Source: a phage
Length of the DNA: 64,000 bases
Reading direction: 5' to 3' (one strand)
Sequence record: PZ445554.1
Position 1 is the stretch's first letter, and the number at the start of each line of letters is the position of its first letter. The notes under the pieces were generated by a model. That model saw only the letters and a list, made by a program, of their open reading frames with translations, was not told the DNA's origin and ran no database searches. Positions 16,871 through 26,780 of this stretch are shown one piece after another. The translations under genes were made by a program, and so were the position numbers.

Positions 16871-16912
16871 AATAAAACCCTTACCTTAAATAGATAAGGG
16901 TATTTATTATTT

Positions 16913-16960
16913 TTAAGTATTGTAAAACATTCGATGCAATCGTTTATACTGTCGAATCAT
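16913..16960. repeat. Direct repeat R1, copy a (48 bp)
   Basis: About 42/48 identical to 17130-17177; encodes the C-terminal 16 aa of the 58-aa ORF. Confidence 0.8.
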
Positions 16961-17089
16961 CTTTTTAGTAGGACGAGAATAGGTTCCTACGCAAGTGGTC
17001 ATATGAGGGTCCGTAGAATGTCCTTTAATAAAAAGTTTCCAAACCTTACCGCCATTTAACTTTTCAGTATAAACCAATTCGGTTTTCAT
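16913..17089 (-). CDS. Small chimeric ORF (58 aa) sharing its C-terminal 16 aa with the next gene
   Basis: Below track cut-off; ends MIRQYKRLHRMFYNT, matching the C-terminus of ORF 17130-17615 (MIRQYKRLHQMFYNT) through a 48-bp direct repeat. Confidence 0.35.
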   Translation of the reverse strand: MKTELVYTEKLNGGKVWKLFIKGHSTDPHMTTCVGTYSRPTKKMIRQYKRLHRMFYNT

Positions 17090-17100
17090 TAAAATGCCTT

Positions 17101-17123
17101 GTCAGAAAAAGAATTTTGAGTTT
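17101..17123. repeat. Direct repeat R2, copy a (23 bp), followed by a T7 run
   Basis: Exact copy of 17181-17203; lies in the leader of the 58-aa ORF. Confidence 0.8.
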
Positions 17124-17129
17124 TTTTTT

Positions 17130-17177
17130 TCAAGTATTATAAAACATTTGATGCAATCGCTTATATTGCCGAATCAT
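17130..17177. repeat. Direct repeat R1, copy b (48 bp)
   Basis: Encodes the C-terminus of ORF 17130-17615. Confidence 0.8.
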
Positions 17178-17615
17178 TTGGTCAGAAAAAGAATTTTGAG
17201 TTTCAAGCCATTCAATATATTCTGCCGCAGCTTGCATCAGGTTACCTTCATAATCATCAATATCTTTTTTCAATGCCACTTTAGCTAATGCATATGAAAT
17301 ACGTTCACCTTGAAAAGCGGCTTTAGGCTTCTGAACATCTTGGCTAGTTCTCTCTACAACTTCCTCGATTTCACCATTTTCAACGGATTCAGTATTCCAC
17401 AAACACCAATACGTAATTGGCTTATCATAGATGTTAATAATCTTTCCGTCGGAAAGTTCAATTTCAATAATTCCAGTGTCAGGCTCTATATCATCTTCAC
17501 ATTCTTTTGCAAGTTCACGAACTTTAAAGACAGTACCTGCACTAAGTTCCGGCCAGTAATTACATAGCCCTGTATCAACACGATTAATTCTAAACCACTT
17601 ATCTACTGTAATCAT
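17130..17615 (-). CDS. Hypothetical protein, 161 aa (position of T4 pin, Lon protease inhibitor)
   Basis: ATG MITVDKW with GGAG RBS; early-promoter cassette upstream; size and position fit pin but I cannot verify the sequence. Confidence 0.5.
   Translation of the reverse strand: MITVDKWFRINRVDTGLCNYWPELSAGTVFKVRELAKECEDDIEPDTGIIEIELSDGKIINIYDKPITYWCLWNTESVENGEIEEVVERTSQDVQKPKAAFQGERISYALAKVALKKDIDDYEGNLMQAAAEYIEWLETQNSFSDQMIRQYKRLHQMFYNT
17181..17203. repeat. Direct repeat R2, copy b (23 bp)
   Basis: Inside the coding region of ORF 17130-17615. Confidence 0.8.
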
Positions 17616-17655
17616 GTCCCATCTCCATATCAATTAAGTCATTTATCGTTGGTTC

Positions 17656-18720: not shown

Positions 18721-18963
18721 TTATTCCTTAATTCCTAGTACTTGTTTAAAAGTCTCGTCGTAATCAAGACTTTGACCCGTTTGTTCTTTATGTTTGTATA
18801 TAATATCACTTACTTCTGATAGCATATTTTTATATGAACGAGTTAAAGCAGATTTAAGCACGCTGTATCTATCAGGAAATTTACCGTGTTCATTATAATA
18901 AGCTATTGCTAATTCACGGACTGCCTTTTCGGCAGTCTCCATATATTCTTTACGCTTGGTCAT
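18721..18963 (-). CDS. Hypothetical protein
   Basis: First ATG in ORF ([14 protein letters not shown]); track start is a non-ATG codon. Confidence 0.45.
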
Positions 18964-19264
18964 TTTCTTCTCGGTCAAATCGGTGTTTACAATGGCGACA
19001 TTTATAACGAAGATTATTAGTCTGCCAATGGACTAATTGCACCTGTTCAGTTCCACATTCAGGGCAATTAGGAACGTTTTTAGAAGCACGTTCGCGGCGT
19101 TCAACCATGACCATTACAGAATCCCAATTAATAGGGCTGCTATAATCATCACAACCATGAATCTTTCCACGCATTTCCAGATCGTCTTCTTCACCAGCCA
19201 TAATAATTTTAATTAGACTAGAATTACTTGAAGCTGCAATGTCTTCTAATAGACGCTTTTTCAT
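18950..19264 (-). CDS. Hypothetical protein with C-terminal zinc ribbon
   Basis: 104 aa; CPECG...CRHCKH four-Cys motif. Confidence 0.5.
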
Positions 19265-20190
19265 TTCAATACCTCAATAGCATTACGTAAACCATTTGCT
19301 TTTGCATTAAGAGCTTTTAACAATTTGGTGTGTTCTTCAATTTGGGCTTCAACTTCAATCAAACGAGCATTGAGATATTCACGTTCTTCGCTCAAGTTAT
19401 CAACCTTTTCTACTTTAGGTTCTTTTACAACTGGCTTATACGTATTAGGGTTCTTCAGTTTAATTAGAATGCGTGAACTGTATAACATTGAACCATTATC
19501 TTCGGTTTCATCATGCATTTCTACTACGTCCATGATTTTTAACATCATGCGAAGTTTATAAGACAACGAACGAATAGTTTTGTTGTGCTTATTAATTTCT
19601 CTAGCTGTCATGGTGCCGAGATTACGTGAGTAATAATAAGGAACCTGGATATTAATTAATACTGATGAACCACCTGGCTTGTGTGTTACTTCATCAGCAA
19701 TAACCCAGTCCTTAACATGAACTGTATTTGTACGGTCATCGCCCATGGTAAACAGTTTGCGAGCATGCTTAAAAAGCATATTCACTTGAGTATTGAATTG
19801 ACAAGCAAATTTATCAGCAAATTTAGTTTCAGGAATGGTAGATAACCAATCAGCCAAATGGGTCTTTTTAACATCGTTAATAATAGTAAATTCAACCAAA
19901 TCGGTTATAGATGTCGCAGATTTAATGAAGCTCGGCTTCATAAAGTTTTTAATGTTATCGCGAGCTACAGTAGAAGATAACATACGAGAACGTTTAAACC
20001 ATTCAAGCAAATTGCCTAACGAATGAGAATAAGCGTTTTGAGTATCTTTACAGATATGATTTTCCTGGCCAACATATTGAAGGAAATCACGAAGAATATT
20101 ATTGATTACTGCTCTGTGCCCGATCTGATAATTACGGTGTTTAGTAATAAGACTGTCAAAATAATCAATATAATGTTTACGAGTTTTCAT
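19261..20190 (-). CDS. Hypothetical protein, member 1 of a tandem paralog family with C-terminal coiled coil
   Basis: 309 aa; shares a KIMDVVEMH-type block and a heptad-rich C-terminal helix with the next two ORFs. Confidence 0.55.
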   Translation of the reverse strand: MKTRKHYIDYFDSLITKHRNYQIGHRAVINNILRDFLQYVGQENHICKDTQNAYSHSLGNLLEWFKRSRMLSSTVARDNIKNFMKPSFIKSATSITDLVEFTIINDVKKTHLADWLSTIPETKFADKFACQFNTQVNMLFKHARKLFTMGDDRTNTVHVKDWVIADEVTHKPGGSSVLINIQVPYYYSRNLGTMTAREINKHNKTIRSLSYKLRMMLKIMDVVEMHDETEDNGSMLYSSRILIKLKNPNTYKPVVKEPKVEKVDNLSEEREYLNARLIEVEAQIEEHTKLLKALNAKANGLRNAIEVLK

Positions 20191-20242
20191 GTTCTTCTCA
20201 CTTGGTTAATGGTTTATACTCCGAGCCATCCTTGGCTTTAAA

Positions 20243-21244
20243 TTACTTAATTAACTGTAAAGCTTGTTCAAGACGATCCAGGCGATTAACAGATTCTTCC
20301 CAAATCCTTTTAGCCTGCTCATATTCTTTCTGTGCTTTATTAGAAATTTCTAGAACTTCTTTATAAGCTTTTTCTAGTGCAATAACTTCTGGACGAATTT
20401 CTATCGGTTCAGGTGAATCGTCAAGACATTCCATTAGTTCCTCAAGGGTAGTTTCTTCTTTAGGAGTATTCACAATTTCATCACATTTTTGTTGGTAAAT
20501 TTCTTTATCAGTCGGTGAGTACGCACACTTTACTTCACGAAGACTAACTACAATTTTATATCCTTCCCAACCGCATATATTCTTAAAAGGATAAGTATGA
20601 ATATTTTCTACTGTTTCCATACAAAGTAATGCAGTCTCTAACTGACGAGTTATATCACTAGCAATTGAGAAAAATTTATTAATGTTCTTTTGATTAGCTT
20701 CTGGTGTAAAAAATTCATAATTCACAAAAATAGCTACTTTATTTTTATCAAGTTCATATTCTTTTATGATAATCATATCAGAAGCCAAAGGATGAATTTG
20801 ACGATAATCGCCATAGCATAATTTAGAAGCTGATTTCAAAATTTGCTTCTTGAAAAGTCTAAAATTACTAACCCAACGACGAGTAAAAATATTCTCAGGG
20901 TCTTCTTTAATATTAAGATGATAAGAATTAACATCACCGAACCAATTGTATCCTACTACATCTTTAGTTCGTTTAATTTCTTTCCCAAATTTACTAAGAA
21001 TATCTTGATTAACTAAATATGAAAGAAGACGAGACCCTTTAAAGGTTTCCTTAATATCATCTTTATCTGCACGACTAGAAATTTTATGAACTTCATGAAT
21101 AAATTTGCTGGAAGAAACAATACTTGCATCAGTATTATTGAGCCATTGATTGATAATGGAAATAACGCTATTCTGACTAGACATAGGTTTAACTTTATCA
21201 TCAATAACGCTATTGAATGATTTGATATATTCGTTACGAGTCAT
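20243..21244 (-). CDS. Hypothetical protein, paralog family member 2
   Basis: Start at Met MTRNEYIKSF with GAGGAG RBS and an early promoter immediately upstream; C-terminal coiled coil. Confidence 0.55.
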   Translation of the reverse strand: MTRNEYIKSFNSVIDDKVKPMSSQNSVISIINQWLNNTDASIVSSSKFIHEVHKISSRADKDDIKETFKGSRLLSYLVNQDILSKFGKEIKRTKDVVGYNWFGDVNSYHLNIKEDPENIFTRRWVSNFRLFKKQILKSASKLCYGDYRQIHPLASDMIIIKEYELDKNKVAIFVNYEFFTPEANQKNINKFFSIASDITRQLETALLCMETVENIHTYPFKNICGWEGYKIVVSLREVKCAYSPTDKEIYQQKCDEIVNTPKEETTLEELMECLDDSPEPIEIRPEVIALEKAYKEVLEISNKAQKEYEQAKRIWEESVNRLDRLEQALQLIK

Positions 21245-21272
21245 ATTAATCTCCTCAGTAGAAAGTAAGAAC

Positions 21273-21302
21273 ATTATACCACATCCTTGTGGCAAAGTAA
21301 AC
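21273..21302 (-). promoter_or_regulatory. Early promoter (GTTTAC / TGGTATAAT)
   Basis: Minus strand GTTTAC-N18-TATAAT with TG extension, upstream of ORF 20243-21244. Confidence 0.6.
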
Positions 21303-22321
21303 TAGTTCAGTGCATTTAGTGCATTATTCAGTTTAGAACGTTGCTTTGCCAGATTTTGAACCCTTGACTGAGCTTGTTCTAACACCTTTTCAGCTTCTAG
21401 CACTTCATTGGTCGCTTTAACGAGTTCATCATCTACTGCCTTGATAGACTTCTCAATCGCATCCGCGTGCCATTTTTCAACGGGTTTAAGACTCGGATTT
21501 TCAACAGGAAGAAAATTCACTTTATTGAATTTCCATGCATCTTTATTACCTGAACTATACATCCAAAATTTAGGATCGTTTGATGAGTAATTAGATAAAT
21601 TTAAGTTATCTTGCACTTCTTGCTTTTTCTCTTGCGGGACTTCGTCCTTTCTCAAAAAATCGTATTTAAATGAAACGACCATATCAAGTTCATATGTTGT
21701 TGTATGTTCCCAATTTCGCTCAAAACGAGGTAAAATCTTAGAATGAACAGCGGCAACAACATCCATATACTTAAATGCTTCTGTCAACTGCGATTTAAGG
21801 CATTCACAAATTGAAAGAGAATTTTTTGTATTAGGTTTAAAGCTAATTCGCGCAGTTCTATTATTTTCTTTTAATGGTCTTACTTCCATCTGAAGAGTAT
21901 AACCATCAAATTTCAGGTTCTTTAAGTTAATGTCAGAACCTTTTAATCGACTAGCCGTCGACAAAATTTGCTTTAATTGTTTACGGAATAGAGCAATAAA
22001 TCTCCATTCAATACGATAATGATTTGGATTGAAAAATCCAGATGATAAATCGACCTTACTCTGACCAACACCTTGAACAAATAGAGGATTTTTATAATCA
22101 ATAGTTTTACAGAAATCGGTGAGCTGCTCACGAGCAGTCATTTGTGTAATATACCCCGCTTTACTAAAATGACGTAATAATTCACTGCTATTTAGATATT
22201 TAAAGTGAATAGCACGATTAACTTTATCAGGGTCTAAATTATTTTCACACAAAAATGTCATAACATTACGAGTATCGCTGCCAGTACGAACCATATCTTC
22301 AATTTGAGAACGAGTTTTCAT
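21302..22321 (-). CDS. Hypothetical protein, paralog family member 3
   Basis: 339 aa; KYMDVVAAVH block; C-terminal coiled coil. Confidence 0.55.
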   Translation of the reverse strand: MKTRSQIEDMVRTGSDTRNVMTFLCENNLDPDKVNRAIHFKYLNSSELLRHFSKAGYITQMTAREQLTDFCKTIDYKNPLFVQGVGQSKVDLSSGFFNPNHYRIEWRFIALFRKQLKQILSTASRLKGSDINLKNLKFDGYTLQMEVRPLKENNRTARISFKPNTKNSLSICECLKSQLTEAFKYMDVVAAVHSKILPRFERNWEHTTTYELDMVVSFKYDFLRKDEVPQEKKQEVQDNLNLSNYSSNDPKFWMYSSGNKDAWKFNKVNFLPVENPSLKPVEKWHADAIEKSIKAVDDELVKATNEVLEAEKVLEQAQSRVQNLAKQRSKLNNALNALN

Positions 22322-22329
22322 GGTGTTCC

Positions 22330-23217
22330 TTAAGATTTAAGTAAATCAACAATTTTAATTAACTTTTCACGCTCAGATTTAGCTTTACTACTCAGTCCAG
22401 ATAGTCTGAAAATTTCATCATCATATTGTTGAATAGAAATATTCAGCTCTTCAATCTGTTTATTAAAATAATCAATTTGTTCAGAATGTTTTTCGTTACT
22501 ACGAAATGGTACAGGTTTTGTAGGCAATTTAGTTGAATTGGATTCATCCGGGCGATAAATTAAAATACAACTTGAACCAATCGGACATTTAGCACCAGAT
22601 GAATATTCTAACGTTCCAGCTTCTTTTAAAACTTCAAAAGCTAAACAGAGATGATGCCCCATATTGACATAATCTGTAGAGCGAGCTCTGATATAATAAT
22701 CATCGCCGCGAATACTAAATTTAAAGCATTTAAGGTCTTCTGTATTATTGGTCTTAAAAATCATTTGTTTATCTAGACCTTTAGCTAATCGAGCGCCTAA
22801 TGCTAATAATCGTCGTTGATTTTCCCACAAATCCGCAATCATTTGATCGAATGATAATTTCGGCATTAGTCGACCATAAAGGTCATATCCTTTATTATAA
22901 TTGCGAAGGATTTCACTCGCATTAATACGAGACAACGCTCCAATTTTATTAAGGGCTTTCATGATGCGATTAGATAAACCCATTCCAGACCCGTTTGTTC
23001 GTTGTAAATGTTTATCTAATCCAAACCCAATATCAACTTTAAATTTATCTAAAATTTCAGCATGAACATCTCTGTCAATAACATTCAAATCCAAAGTTGG
23101 GTTAAATCTATGAAAAAATTTATCTGGCTCTCCACGACGAAGTACAGTCCATTCATTTAATTTTTTATTAACTAAAGATTTAATTACTGCGTTGACATTA
23201 TTAATTACTACTGACAT
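22330..23217 (-). CDS. Hypothetical protein with C-terminal coiled coil (possible 4th family member)
   Basis: Start at ATG MSVVINN (track start is TTG); similar size and C-terminal helix, family membership less clear. Confidence 0.5.
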   Translation of the reverse strand: MSVVINNVNAVIKSLVNKKLNEWTVLRRGEPDKFFHRFNPTLDLNVIDRDVHAEILDKFKVDIGFGLDKHLQRTNGSGMGLSNRIMKALNKIGALSRINASEILRNYNKGYDLYGRLMPKLSFDQMIADLWENQRRLLALGARLAKGLDKQMIFKTNNTEDLKCFKFSIRGDDYYIRARSTDYVNMGHHLCLAFEVLKEAGTLEYSSGAKCPIGSSCILIYRPDESNSTKLPTKPVPFRSNEKHSEQIDYFNKQIEELNISIQQYDDEIFRLSGLSSKAKSEREKLIKIVDLLKS

Positions 23218-23691: not shown

Positions 23692-24219
23692 TTATGCGAG
23701 TACCGTCTTTAACCGTTCTTCAAACTTCCGAAGAGTATTTTGGCGTTCAGCTCTTTGCTTTTTGTAAGTTTCAATACGCTCTGAAATGAGATTGTATCGT
23801 TCATTTACTGATTCTTTCATAAAATCAGGAATTTCACGAGAAGCTTTAATCTCGTCAAATTTATCAATAACAGCTTGCTCTTCAGCAATTAAGTTATCAT
23901 ACATCAAAATATCTTTCTTGATGAACTCAATATCTTCTTGAGTTACACGAGATAATTTAGATGCTTTATCCTTTTTGTACTGTTCGTTAGTATCACGAGA
24001 CCAGTGTAATGTACGATTTTTATTCGTATTCTTGTAAATTTCTACAATACCAATCTCATCGATAATAACGATCCAATTCCAACGGGATTTGTAAATTTGT
24101 CCTCCATCAACCGTGATTTCACCTCCGATTGAGATGTCATTAAAGAACTTGCTTTGTGCTTCAGATTTAAATTTACCATCGTTGTAATTTACCAGGTTGA
24201 AAATATCTTTAGCGTTCAT
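23692..24219 (-). CDS. Hypothetical protein with C-terminal coiled coil
   Basis: 175 aa; early-promoter cassette directly upstream. Confidence 0.5.
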   Translation of the reverse strand: MNAKDIFNLVNYNDGKFKSEAQSKFFNDISIGGEITVDGGQIYKSRWNWIVIIDEIGIVEIYKNTNKNRTLHWSRDTNEQYKKDKASKLSRVTQEDIEFIKKDILMYDNLIAEEQAVIDKFDEIKASREIPDFMKESVNERYNLISERIETYKKQRAERQNTLRKFEERLKTVLA

Positions 24220-24683: not shown

Positions 24684-25652
24684 TTATTTCAGAAGAGTAA
24701 CCTCAGCAATTTCTTCCCAACCGTTTTTGTCGGTCATAATAAAGTCAGCAAGATAAAGTGCAGTACGCAGTGAAACATTGCGTAAACGATTAACATTGAC
24801 TTTCATCCATGATAATGCTTTATAAGTTTCTTCATCAGAAAGACCGCGCTTTTGCATCATGTCAGTTGAAAGAATAACATCTTCAACCCTGACCATAATT
24901 TCTTCATTAGTGTGAACACCCAAATCCAAATAAACTGAGCGGGACACTAATGCTTGTAAATGTGGAGCAAGTTTAGTACCACGGTCTAATTCGCGGTCAA
25001 TATCAACGTTTGTGATAAAAACAATTGTTCCTTTAAATTCAAACTCACGGTCAATGCCTTTTTCTTCTAAGTAAGAAGATGCAGTACTCCAGCAGACTTT
25101 ACGGGTCTCTCCAGTGTCCAGAGCAGCTTTCAGAAGATTAAGAATGTCCATATCAGAGAAAACATCCACATCATCAATCAAAAGGACAGAATTCTCTTCA
25201 CGATTATTCCAAAGCTGCTCATAAAGACCGATACCAGAGATTTTACCATTAATGCTTTTATACTCAATGTATCCAATATCATTTGCTTTATTTAAAGCTT
25301 TATCTAAAGAATACGTTTTACCAATACCCGCCGCACCAGAGATAATTAATGAACGAATGTTTCCGTTAATAATACCATTCGTCATCATTCCCATAACATT
25401 AAATCTTTTATTAATGCGGGTTTTCATATCTTCATATGATTCTTTAACTTCTTCAACTTTTACGCCATCATATGAAATGTCTGATTTGTAAACCCAAACA
25501 CCGCGACGTTTACCGTCAATTTCAACAAAAACTTTACCATCTCCTTGTGCATCTACCGGAGCATTATCTGGGAACCATTCGCCTAAGAGCTCAAAAGTTC
25601 CAGAGATTTCTTTACCGAAGTAGATACCCTTATTGATAGTTACAGTTTTCAT
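24684..25652 (-). CDS. P-loop ATPase (AAA-like) with N-terminal extra domain
   Basis: Walker A GAAGIGKT and Walker B LLIDDVD; start at first ATG with GGAGA RBS; early promoter upstream. Confidence 0.6.
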   Translation of the reverse strand: MKTVTINKGIYFGKEISGTFELLGEWFPDNAPVDAQGDGKVFVEIDGKRRGVWVYKSDISYDGVKVEEVKESYEDMKTRINKRFNVMGMMTNGIINGNIRSLIISGAAGIGKTYSLDKALNKANDIGYIEYKSINGKISGIGLYEQLWNNREENSVLLIDDVDVFSDMDILNLLKAALDTGETRKVCWSTASSYLEEKGIDREFEFKGTIVFITNVDIDRELDRGTKLAPHLQALVSRSVYLDLGVHTNEEIMVRVEDVILSTDMMQKRGLSDEETYKALSWMKVNVNRLRNVSLRTALYLADFIMTDKNGWEEIAEVTLLK

Positions 25653-25686
25653 TTTATTCTCCAAATCCGTATCAGTTGATAGTTGT

Positions 25687-25716
25687 ATAGTACCATAAAG
25701 CTTTATGCTTGTAAAC
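25687..25716 (-). promoter_or_regulatory. Early promoter cassette
   Basis: Same 45-bp cassette; between nucleotidyltransferase and ATPase ORFs. Confidence 0.6.
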
Positions 25717-25746
25717 CGTTTTGTGAAAAATTTTTGAAATAAAAAA

Positions 25747-25764
25747 GGGAGCCCGAAGGCTCCC
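25747..25764 (-). terminator. Stem-loop (UUCG tetraloop) upstream of the nucleotidyltransferase ORF end
   Basis: GGGAGCC-UUCG-GGCUCCC followed by a U-run on the minus strand. Confidence 0.6.
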
Positions 25765-25766
25765 TA

Positions 25767-26780
25767 TCATTTATAATAACTTCGGTGGTTTTCAAGATAG
25801 ACCTTCTCAAGGAAGTCATCCCAGAAACCCATGTCTACTTTTTGCTGCATACCGTTCTTAGAAGCTTCAGTAGATGCTGCTTCTACTTGATCGACCACAT
25901 CTTCCAAAAACTCTTGAACTGTTTTAAATGGATGCTTACCCAACTTCACGTCGAGAATAAATGGAGCATCTTGGAGTGGATAAACCAAGTCACCGGTTTT
26001 GTAAATTTCCAATAGTTGAAGTCCACCACGACAAGCATGGCTCAGAGCTTTCCAGTCAATACCTTCATTGGCTTCGGCCTTACGAGCACGTTCACCATAT
26101 TCAGCATCTAATTTGTTCAGTGACTGCTTAAGCTCAATAAGAGAAAGAGTTGTCTGATATTTACGACCCAACACAGTGTAGAACGTTTGTGGGCCTGTTT
26201 TCTCATGATTATAGAACACCCATTCACAGAATTCGTTTTCTGGAAGACGATGCTTAATATCTTCAACTTTAGTACGACGCTGCTTAATGGAACCGTCTTC
26301 TTGGTAATCAACCCATTGCTCAGGGATTTGATTAACTACTTTCAATACATCACGTAATGCAGCCAAACGAGAACCCTTGACACCGTATTTAGAAGCTTGC
26401 TTACGGACATATCCTAAATAGGATTTCATGTTAGTCGTATAAAAACGAGAACGGTTGTCTTGAATAAACTTCCACACGTCAGGCAAATCAGATTTAACCA
26501 CTAGCTCAGGTGGAGTGTGAAGCATATCCAATGCTACAGTTTCACCATCTGCTGCTAATTTAAAGAAATATTTAAGACTGTATAGTTCATGGTCAATATC
26601 ATCTTTAGTGTTTTTAGATGATGTGTTGTTAGTGTTTTTACTCATGTGCTCTTTGACATTTCCGATAAGAATATCGCGAGCAGGAGGAACAAAGATTTCT
26701 TTAAAATCTATATCAGATTCTGGGGTAGAAGTTCCATAAAGATGACTACCAAAATAGCTTTTCATTACTGTTTTCATCAT
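25767..26780 (-). CDS. Predicted nucleotidyltransferase (Pol-beta superfamily fold)
   Basis: N-terminal FGSHLYGTSTPESDIDF, i.e. G-S, ten residues, D-x-D, the signature of minimal nucleotidyltransferases; 337 aa. Confidence 0.55.
   Translation of the reverse strand: MMKTVMKSYFGSHLYGTSTPESDIDFKEIFVPPARDILIGNVKEHMSKNTNNTSSKNTKDDIDHELYSLKYFFKLAADGETVALDMLHTPPELVVKSDLPDVWKFIQDNRSRFYTTNMKSYLGYVRKQASKYGVKGSRLAALRDVLKVVNQIPEQWVDYQEDGSIKQRRTKVEDIKHRLPENEFCEWVFYNHEKTGPQTFYTVLGRKYQTTLSLIELKQSLNKLDAEYGERARKAEANEGIDWKALSHACRGGLQLLEIYKTGDLVYPLQDAPFILDVKLGKHPFKTVQEFLEDVVDQVEAASTEASKNGMQQKVDMGFWDDFLEKVYLENHRSYYK

Follow-up and report, generated by a model that had tools for sequence, protein, structure and literature searches.

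Four adjacent genes in the nrdC region of a T4-like phage

We examined a stretch of 64,000 nucleotides (nt) of phage DNA (sequence record PZ445554.1; hereafter the window), in which four consecutive genes, here designated A to D, lie in tandem at positions 19261-23217 (Table 1). An earlier note on this DNA, made from its letters alone, had read them as a tandem family of proteins with a common internal block and a C-terminal coiled coil. Its gene coordinates and start codons proved right, all on the minus strand; the ATG of B, at 21244, follows a GAGGAG, and that of D, at 23217, a GAGGA. The window belongs to a Tequatrovirus, that is, a T4-like phage: the 3.97-kb region matched 657 phage records, with top nucleotide identities of 96-97%, and nearly all of these came from T4-like phages of Escherichia, Shigella, Salmonella or Yersinia. 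The array is flanked downstream by nrdC.2, nrdC.1 and nrdC, and upstream by nrdC.7 to nrdC.11.

The product of gene C is 92.6% identical in amino acids (aa) to T4 NrdC.5, occupies the syntenic position and matched the Pfam model DUF7235 (domain of unknown function; PF23882) over its full length, with 412.1 bits (E = 2e-123) against a gathering score of 30 bits. In the same Pfam search, A, B and D did not match this model at E <= 1, and it was matched by seven of the 14 members of a broad family alignment. In newer Pfam releases, precomputed assignments put proteins of the A/B type into PF26897 and D into PF26899. Scans of the family with PADLOC and NCBIfam returned nothing meaningful.

Table 1. 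Positions of the four genes, their shared motifs and tails, and the putative promoter of gene B in the window
Feature	Coordinates	Strand	Details
Gene A	19261-20190	-	309 aa; orthologue of T4 nrdC.3 (T4 annotation); phrog_1435; paralogue of B
Gene B	20243-21244	-	333 aa; orthologue of T4 nrdC.4 (T4 annotation); phrog_1435 at E = 8e-167
Gene C	21302-22321	-	339 aa; orthologue of T4 nrdC.5; phrog_2351; Pfam DUF7235 (PF23882)
Gene D	22330-23217	-	295 aa; orthologue of T4 nrdC.6; phrog_2257
Motif 1	A 19942-19998; B 20987-21043; C 22112-22168; D 22897-22953	-	F/L-K-x-S/G-x-L/I-S/T...A-R-D/E-x-L-x-x-F; hhalign, MAFFT
Motif 2	A 19738-19797; B 20807-20863; C 21932-21988; D 22771-22827	-	F-x-x-x-x-K-x-I-L-x-x-A-x-R/K-L-x-x-G; hhalign
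Motif 3	A 19513-19539; B 20597-20626; C 21743-21772	-	Internal block of the earlier note (KYMDVVAAVH in C); hhalign, MAFFT
Heptad helix of A	19264-19410	-	aa 261-309; core 86% hydrophobic, reached by 3/2000 shuffles
Heptad helix of B	20246-20392	-	aa 285-333; 99.4% identity among orthologues, dN/dS 0.01
Heptad helix of C	21305-21469	-	aa 285-339; modelled as one continuous helix, residues 281-338, pLDDT 85-92
Heptad helices of D	22333-22485	-	aa 245-295; break at SGLSS
Putative T4 early-type sigma-70 promoter	21301-21273	-	GTTTACT-17-TGgTATAAT; C-B spacer; 10/12 match, extended -10; top promoter match in the region

A, B and C are related outside their tails

Direct comparisons by BLASTP linked A with B alone (24% identity over 270 residues, E = 6.7e-8), with nothing significant for the pairs A-C, A-D, B-C, B-D and C-D, and Pfam and PHROGs hold three separate families. 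Both facts would suit the view that there is no real family here, the four proteins resembling one another only in the composition of their coiled-coil tails. Profile comparisons spoke otherwise. Using family alignments built from Tequatrovirus, Gaprivervirus and Dhakavirus loci, the A/B family aligned with the C family over 252 columns (hhalign probability 94.5%, E = 7.8e-8), and the match persisted after removal of the tails (E = 3.5e-6 to 1.8e-5 over 136-148 columns), whereas the same tail-less profiles gave E = 0.2-0.8 against the unrelated neighbour nrdC.8. The profile alignment that the earlier note had proposed as a check thus did not confine the likeness to the coiled coil. Likewise, the internal block on which that note was built (KIMDVVEMH / KYMDVVAAVH / LCMETVENIH) fell into identical columns with MAFFT and was in register with hhalign. 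We conclude that A, B and C almost certainly constitute a true paralogous family.

Among the four genes there are no repeats at the DNA level longer than about 19-35 nt, indicating that the duplications are ancient. Searches with hmmsearch, using single-family or merged profiles, of all open reading frames (ORFs) from 31 loci gave no match across families and revealed no further members in the window. The product of nrdC.8 (23692-24219), considered as a fifth member, ends in a heptad tail similar to that of the family and is otherwise unrelated: its hhalign match (E = 0.069) covers just 26 columns of the tail, and the cores gave the control values above.

D is a diverged member

With shallow profiles, the relationship of D to the other three was not significant (E = 0.015-0.17). 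To broaden the ABC profile, we used the merged A+B+C profile in an exhaustive HMMER search and added the distant full-length representatives found. Comparison of this broader profile with that of D yielded a probability of 90.3% and E = 1.5e-6 over a core comprising motifs 1 and 2, and E = 3.5e-5 when the tails were removed (nrdC.8 controls, 0.2-0.8).

The common architecture that had been ascribed to the fourth gene was borne out by this match of the cores and by structure predictions. AlphaFold2 (AF2) models of C and D contain the same elements in the same order: N-terminal helices, the helix of motif 1, a small beta element, a pair of helices (motif 2) and a beta-hairpin, followed by a helix (motif 3), a second beta-hairpin, a disordered linker and a long C-terminal helix. 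Foldseek searches of BFVD with both models retrieved the same three structures with significance, which are uncharacterised proteins of 309-374 aa from other T4-like phages, namely A0A2S1GM98 of Erwinia phage Cronus (E = 9.5e-8 with C and 3.2e-4 with D), A0A2Z4QAR2 of Klebsiella phage Mineola (6.9e-7 and 2.8e-4) and A0A0A0PZG4 of Pectobacterium phage PM2 (1.4e-5 and 6.5e-7). The likeness of the two folds is indirect, running through these shared matches, with template modelling (TM) scores of 0.3-0.5 and E = 0.12 for the match of D to a member of the C family. A sequence bridge is provided by gp085 of Enterobacter phage IME523, which scored 59 bits against the hidden Markov model (HMM) of ABC and 23 bits against that of D; this protein is syntenic, its gene adjoining nrdC.2, and was among the top Foldseek matches of the D model (E = 8.4e-7).

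D is therefore best seen as a diverged member, indeed the most diverged of the superfamily, although its place is slightly less secure than that of A, B and C; the four genes together very probably form a true paralogous family. That the resemblance is compositional and limited to the tails is, conversely, scarcely credible, because it does not account for the tail-less similarities (E = 3.5e-6 and 3.5e-5 in the two comparisons), for the Foldseek matches and element order common to C and D, or for the bridging sequence.

A common architecture along the whole protein

Alignment with MAFFT of proteins of the A, B and C families brought into register an N-terminal M(K)TR, motif 1 (FKxSRxLS...ARDxLxxF), motif 2 (F....KxILxxAxRL..G), motif 3 (L..A..YMDVVE), a KP[VI]E..H motif and the tail ending in AL..LK. 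The earlier note had pictured variable N-terminal domains joined to a common tail; this picture does not hold, since homology spans essentially the whole length, from the MKTR/MTR terminus through the three motifs and KPxE..H to the tail. Judging from these alignments, the heads are diverged homologues and not unrelated domains. Each protein would consist, in this order, of a helical N-terminal segment, a compact core of alpha/beta type with the three motifs, a disordered linker, the KPxE..H motif and an amphipathic heptad helix of 45-58 residues. In the model of C, motif 3 forms the end of the helix leading into the second beta-hairpin. Sequence-profile searches of the PDB with the C, D and ABC profiles produced just weak, unrelated matches, mostly coiled coils aligned to the tail.

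Two other annotations were discarded. Many GenBank records label the orthologues of all four genes as thioredoxin, yet none of them has a match to the thioredoxin family in Pfam or NCBIfam, and the label appears to have spread through the records from the gene and locus names of the type nrdC.x. A tyrosine recombinase N-terminal SAM-like domain was found below threshold in gene A alone (E = 0.039 in Pfam and 0.001 in NCBIfam), with a match in one of 14 family members.

The C-terminal heptad tails

As the earlier note had claimed, all four proteins end in a heptad helix, with an unbroken pattern over 42-49 residues in each. Core (a/d) positions are hydrophobic in 83-93% of cases, against 20-30% elsewhere, a value reached by 0-6 of 2000 shuffles at 49 residues, and, counting backwards from the K of the final LK, all four tails are in the same register. 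Every tail thus presents at least four uninterrupted heptads with a hydrophobic core, as expected for a coiled coil. Compared on their own, the A/B and C tails gave E = 7.8e-5, a likeness beyond that of generic coiled coils. Long, solvent-exposed tail helices were predicted in the models of both C and D; that of C is a single helix of 58 residues that does not pack on the core, which in a monomer model is the expected appearance of an oligomerising helix. From the heptad pattern we infer that the tails may mediate oligomerisation.

Tails of this type were also found on other proteins. Klebsiella phage Marfa gp082 (144 aa; L032:4272-4706) carries a family-type tail ending in ...NGLFALK on an unrelated N-terminus, and a 173-aa protein (P0181) from a contig of 803 nt bears the exact NrdC.5 tail, again on an unrelated N-terminus. 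Together they suggest that the tail may be a portable module. As proof of modularity P0181 was set aside as a possible assembly chimera, because of the size of its contig and because its N-terminus matches nothing in the loci compared.

In the T4 reference (NC_000866), the 3' end of nrdC.6 (L001:12067-12140) differs from the window (22333-22470) by a deletion of 1 nt, reading GCTG-ATATT instead of GCTGAATATT. The annotated NrdC.6 is consequently cut to 275 aa and loses its heptad tail, yet the tail remains perfectly encoded in the DNA further downstream; in the HIDEN-SEQ supplement, nrdC.6 of T4 is annotated with a length of 891 nt. The deletion is probably an error of the reference or a mutation of the laboratory strain.

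Expression signals

The claim that each gene has its own ribosome-binding site held for B and D, as described above, and for C (AGGA), whereas A is preceded just by a weak GAG/GAGAAG. An early promoter had been postulated for at least one gene, and a site with the textbook sequence pattern of T4 early promoters does lie directly upstream of B (Table 1). Promoter-like matches overall numbered 24, against 26.5 expected from shuffled sequence, and we consequently gave weight solely to this strong site, which is predicted to drive B and, presumably, A. Transcription of nrdC.8, nrdC.7, D and C could start from a second early-like site, located upstream of nrdC.8 at 24276-24248. The A-B spacer (20191-20242) contains TTTAAA-18-TATAAA with a CCAAGGATGG core, resembling a decayed copy of the promoter of B, and this would be consistent with a promoter duplicated together with its gene. 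The signals point to early transcription of the array, and nrdC.5 was termed an early gene by Srikant et al. (PMC9391042).

Distribution and evolution of the family

The superfamily is tiny, the exhaustive HMMER search described above having found 22 representatives among 1.84 billion proteins, and it is restricted to a few genera of T4-like phages, which have from one to four copies. Tequatrovirus has four (nrdC.6,.5,.4 and.3), with about 470-650 orthologues of each in this genus; three are found in Mosigvirus (.6, a diverged.5 and.3) and in both Dhakavirus and Gaprivervirus (.6,.5 and.4); Marfavirus and Kanagawavirus each have a single full-length member.

Two deep alleles of nrdC.3 occur in Tequatrovirus, with 356 records showing at least 90% identity and 289 records 60-80%, and with the differences concentrated in residues 76-255. 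Together with the adjacent nrdC.2, nrdC.3 behaves as a deep two-allele locus (18950-20190), with a mean identity of about 76% to other Tequatroviruses and a synonymous substitution rate (dS) of 0.66-0.95, versus about 0.15 in neighbouring genes, which suggests old alleles exchanged by recombination. Rearranged forms occur as well. In a 167-kb contig, nrdC.4 is deleted and an in-frame fusion of 299 aa (P0056) links a central part of NrdC.5 with the C-terminal half of NrdC.3, and in another locus (L008:7054-8086) nrdC.4 is split into two ORFs, of 193 and 158 aa.

We estimated the ratio of nonsynonymous to synonymous rates (dN/dS), per gene and per segment, by a crude Nei-Gojobori procedure on five Tequatrovirus loci. 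Gene-wide values were 0.13-0.28 for A to D, against 0.00-0.08 for 49.2, 49.3, nrdC, nrdC.1 and nrdC.8 to nrdC.11. The four genes thus had values 2-10 times those of most neighbours (nrdC, nrdC.1 and nrdC.8 to nrdC.11), and the pin-like ORF, nrdC.2 and nrdC.7 were intermediate (0.14-0.21). The stretch with motifs 1 and 2 was the most constrained (0.00-0.04 in C and D), and the least constrained segments were the N-terminal helices of B and C (0.33-0.50) and the beta region of A (0.23-0.48), the linker and tail of B being almost invariant. These are accessory genes that evolve faster than most of their neighbours. The stronger statement of the earlier note, that they diversify under selection, was not upheld: ratios are raised yet below 1, and no segment exceeded about 0.5 except the 19-codon linker of D, at 0.94.

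The array sits in the plastic nrdC-mobD region, which is rich in counter-defence genes. Just upstream of it, nrdC.10 and nrdC.11 (24684-26780), which encode an AAA/STAND-like ATPase and an RlaP-type nucleotidyltransferase, respectively, are strongly conserved (dN/dS 0.05-0.07). Elsewhere in the region, a direct repeat of 57 nt (86% identity; 16904-16960 and 17121-17177) reproduces the 3'-terminal part of the pin-like ORF (17130-17633) and flanks an ORF of 58 aa (16913-17089) with the same last 15 residues (MIRQYKRLH.MFYNT). Along with a perfect repeat of 23 nt (17101-17123 and 17181-17203), it looks like the scar of the insertion of a small gene cassette.

A role in counter-defence

Published work provides a function for one member. 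Srikant, Guegler and Laub (eLife 2022, PMC9391042) described an evolved T4 clone with deletions that was unable to infect ECOR17, and found that T4 nrdC.5, expressed alone from a plasmid, allowed the deletion phage to plate again on cells carrying dsr1; Dsr1, a SIR2-type abortive-infection protein, is hence neutralised by T4 NrdC.5. By identity and synteny, gene C is the orthologue of this anti-Dsr1 factor, whose activity was shown for the T4 protein. Two neighbouring genes also counter defences, gp49.2 inhibiting OLD (PMC13096335) and nrdC.1 inhibiting Septu (bioRxiv 10.1101/2025.11.20.689424). According to the supplement of the latter study, nrdC.3, nrdC.4, nrdC.5 and nrdC.6 are all non-essential in T4, with transposon insertions at 79-97 of 82-101 sites.

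The earlier note had described the genes as typical of anti-defence or host-takeover effectors. For nrdC.5 this stood, in the company of other counter-defence genes and of an early, non-essential character, whereas for nrdC.3, nrdC.4 and nrdC.6 it is an extrapolation; literature searches with the Pfam accessions and with these three gene names found no functional study of them. Being paralogues of the published anti-Dsr1 gene, the three are nevertheless good candidates for immune-evasion proteins. In the explanation that we favour, and consider probable, the four genes are ancient tandem paralogues of one small superfamily of T4-like phages, encoding early, accessory counter-defence proteins.

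Mechanistically, each protein would be made early in infection and would associate with itself through the tail, into a coiled-coil dimer or a higher oligomer, and its head would bind and block a host immune sensor before the sensor fires. On the same scaffold, A, B and D would expose diverged surfaces directed against further defence proteins or further variants of Dsr1, which would explain the differences in copy number and alleles between phage lineages. We give about even chances to a counter-defence role of the entire family in which coiled-coil oligomers bind the sensors. More tentatively, and with the odds somewhat against it, NrdC.3 to NrdC.6 could be a hitherto unrecognised superfamily of coiled-coil-anchored blockers of immune sensors, in which a conserved core of motifs 1 and 2 and an oligomerising tail support rapidly exchangeable surfaces. 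Every paralogue, and every deep allele such as the two of nrdC.3, would then disarm a different defence protein, and duplication, fusion and loss would tune the host range.

Several points weigh against these proposals. Functional evidence is confined to nrdC.5, and our literature searches turned up no study of the mechanism of NrdC.5; the PDB profile searches brought up no structure, oligomeric state or binding partner for the family. The inclusion of D depends on an alignment of 67-91 core columns together with structural and transitive evidence, its tail alone not being significantly similar to those of ABC (E = 0.003, 10% probability), and the AF2 models are of moderate quality (predicted local distance difference test, pLDDT, 69 for C and 77 for D). 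Furthermore, no segment in the five loci had a dN/dS above 1, so that the signature of an arms race is not demonstrated, and a sample of five loci is not equivalent to a proper site-model test.

The family might instead have its primary role outside defence, for instance in host takeover, in regulating host or phage macromolecular machinery, or in binding the nucleoid or RNA polymerase; the anti-Dsr1 activity of nrdC.5 would then be a lineage-specific neofunctionalisation or a side effect. We consider this unlikely.

Still less probable is that the paralogues act as one hetero-oligomeric coiled-coil complex with several heads, assembled through the tails. The common heptad register and terminal LK, the significant similarity between the A/B and C tails, the near invariance of the B tail and the adjacent, co-transcribed arrangement of the genes would all agree with such a complex. 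However, nrdC.5 alone on a plasmid was enough to restore infection, some genera have a single member, and the tails differ substantially between paralogues, D not being significantly similar to ABC in this part.

Lastly, the alpha/beta core might be a decoy, imitating a phage structural protein with a fold like that of tail terminator or tail completion proteins and so occupying sensors of virion proteins. The resemblance to such a fold that prompts this idea came from one model of moderate quality, with marginal scores, and two-layer alpha+beta sandwiches of this kind are common. Moreover, the published trigger of Dsr1, recognised by its tetratricopeptide repeat (TPR) sensor, is the major capsid protein (2026 preprint, PMC12803255) and not a terminator. 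We thus hold a decoy to be very improbable, and retain early counter-defence proteins as the preferred explanation.

Significance and comparison with known systems

The array is not a new system, as its genes have long been annotated as ORFs in T4 and a function has been published for nrdC.5. The grouping of all four in one superfamily with a common architecture does appear to be new; literature searches found no paper stating the relationship among nrdC.3 to nrdC.6. The scope is limited to a few T4-like genera, and the key fact about nrdC.5 is already in print. Most phage counter-defence genes have no recognisable domains, which makes their discovery slow, and here paralogy to a proven anti-Dsr1 protein supplies three concrete candidates, to which the allelic variants of nrdC.3 add more. 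The structural hypothesis, of a coiled-coil tail attached to a conserved core whose surfaces vary, is directly testable in the best-studied phage model. Two problems in databases are also corrected, namely the division of the family among three unrelated DUFs and PHROGs and its mislabelling as thioredoxin.

The closest known counterpart is T4 NrdC.5 (PF23882) itself: gene C is its orthologue and lies at the equivalent place in the genome, and A, B and D are paralogues of it that share its architecture, although these three do not match DUF7235 directly and the phage studied here is not T4. Its neighbours gp49.2 (anti-OLD) and NrdC.1 (anti-Septu) share with A to D the neighbourhood, the early accessory character and the lack of known domains, but they are small and unrelated, whereas A to D have 300-340 aa and are mutual paralogues. 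DSAD1, the anti-DSR2 protein of SPbeta-like phages, is like NrdC.5 a phage protein that neutralises a SIR2-type, NAD+-depleting abortive-infection protein and is reported to work by direct binding, the mechanism proposed here for NrdC.5; DSAD1 and the A-D family show no similarity in sequence or fold. The internal proteins IPI, IPII and IPIII of T4 are likewise a dispensable accessory family of T-even phages, in which a common module is joined to diverged bodies and members act against different defences, IPI countering GmrSD and IPIII an unidentified system of ECOR17. Their shared module is, however, an N-terminal capsid-targeting sequence for injection, whereas that of A to D is a C-terminal heptad helix in the products of early genes; with no relationship in sequence, the likeness between the two families is an analogy of logic only.

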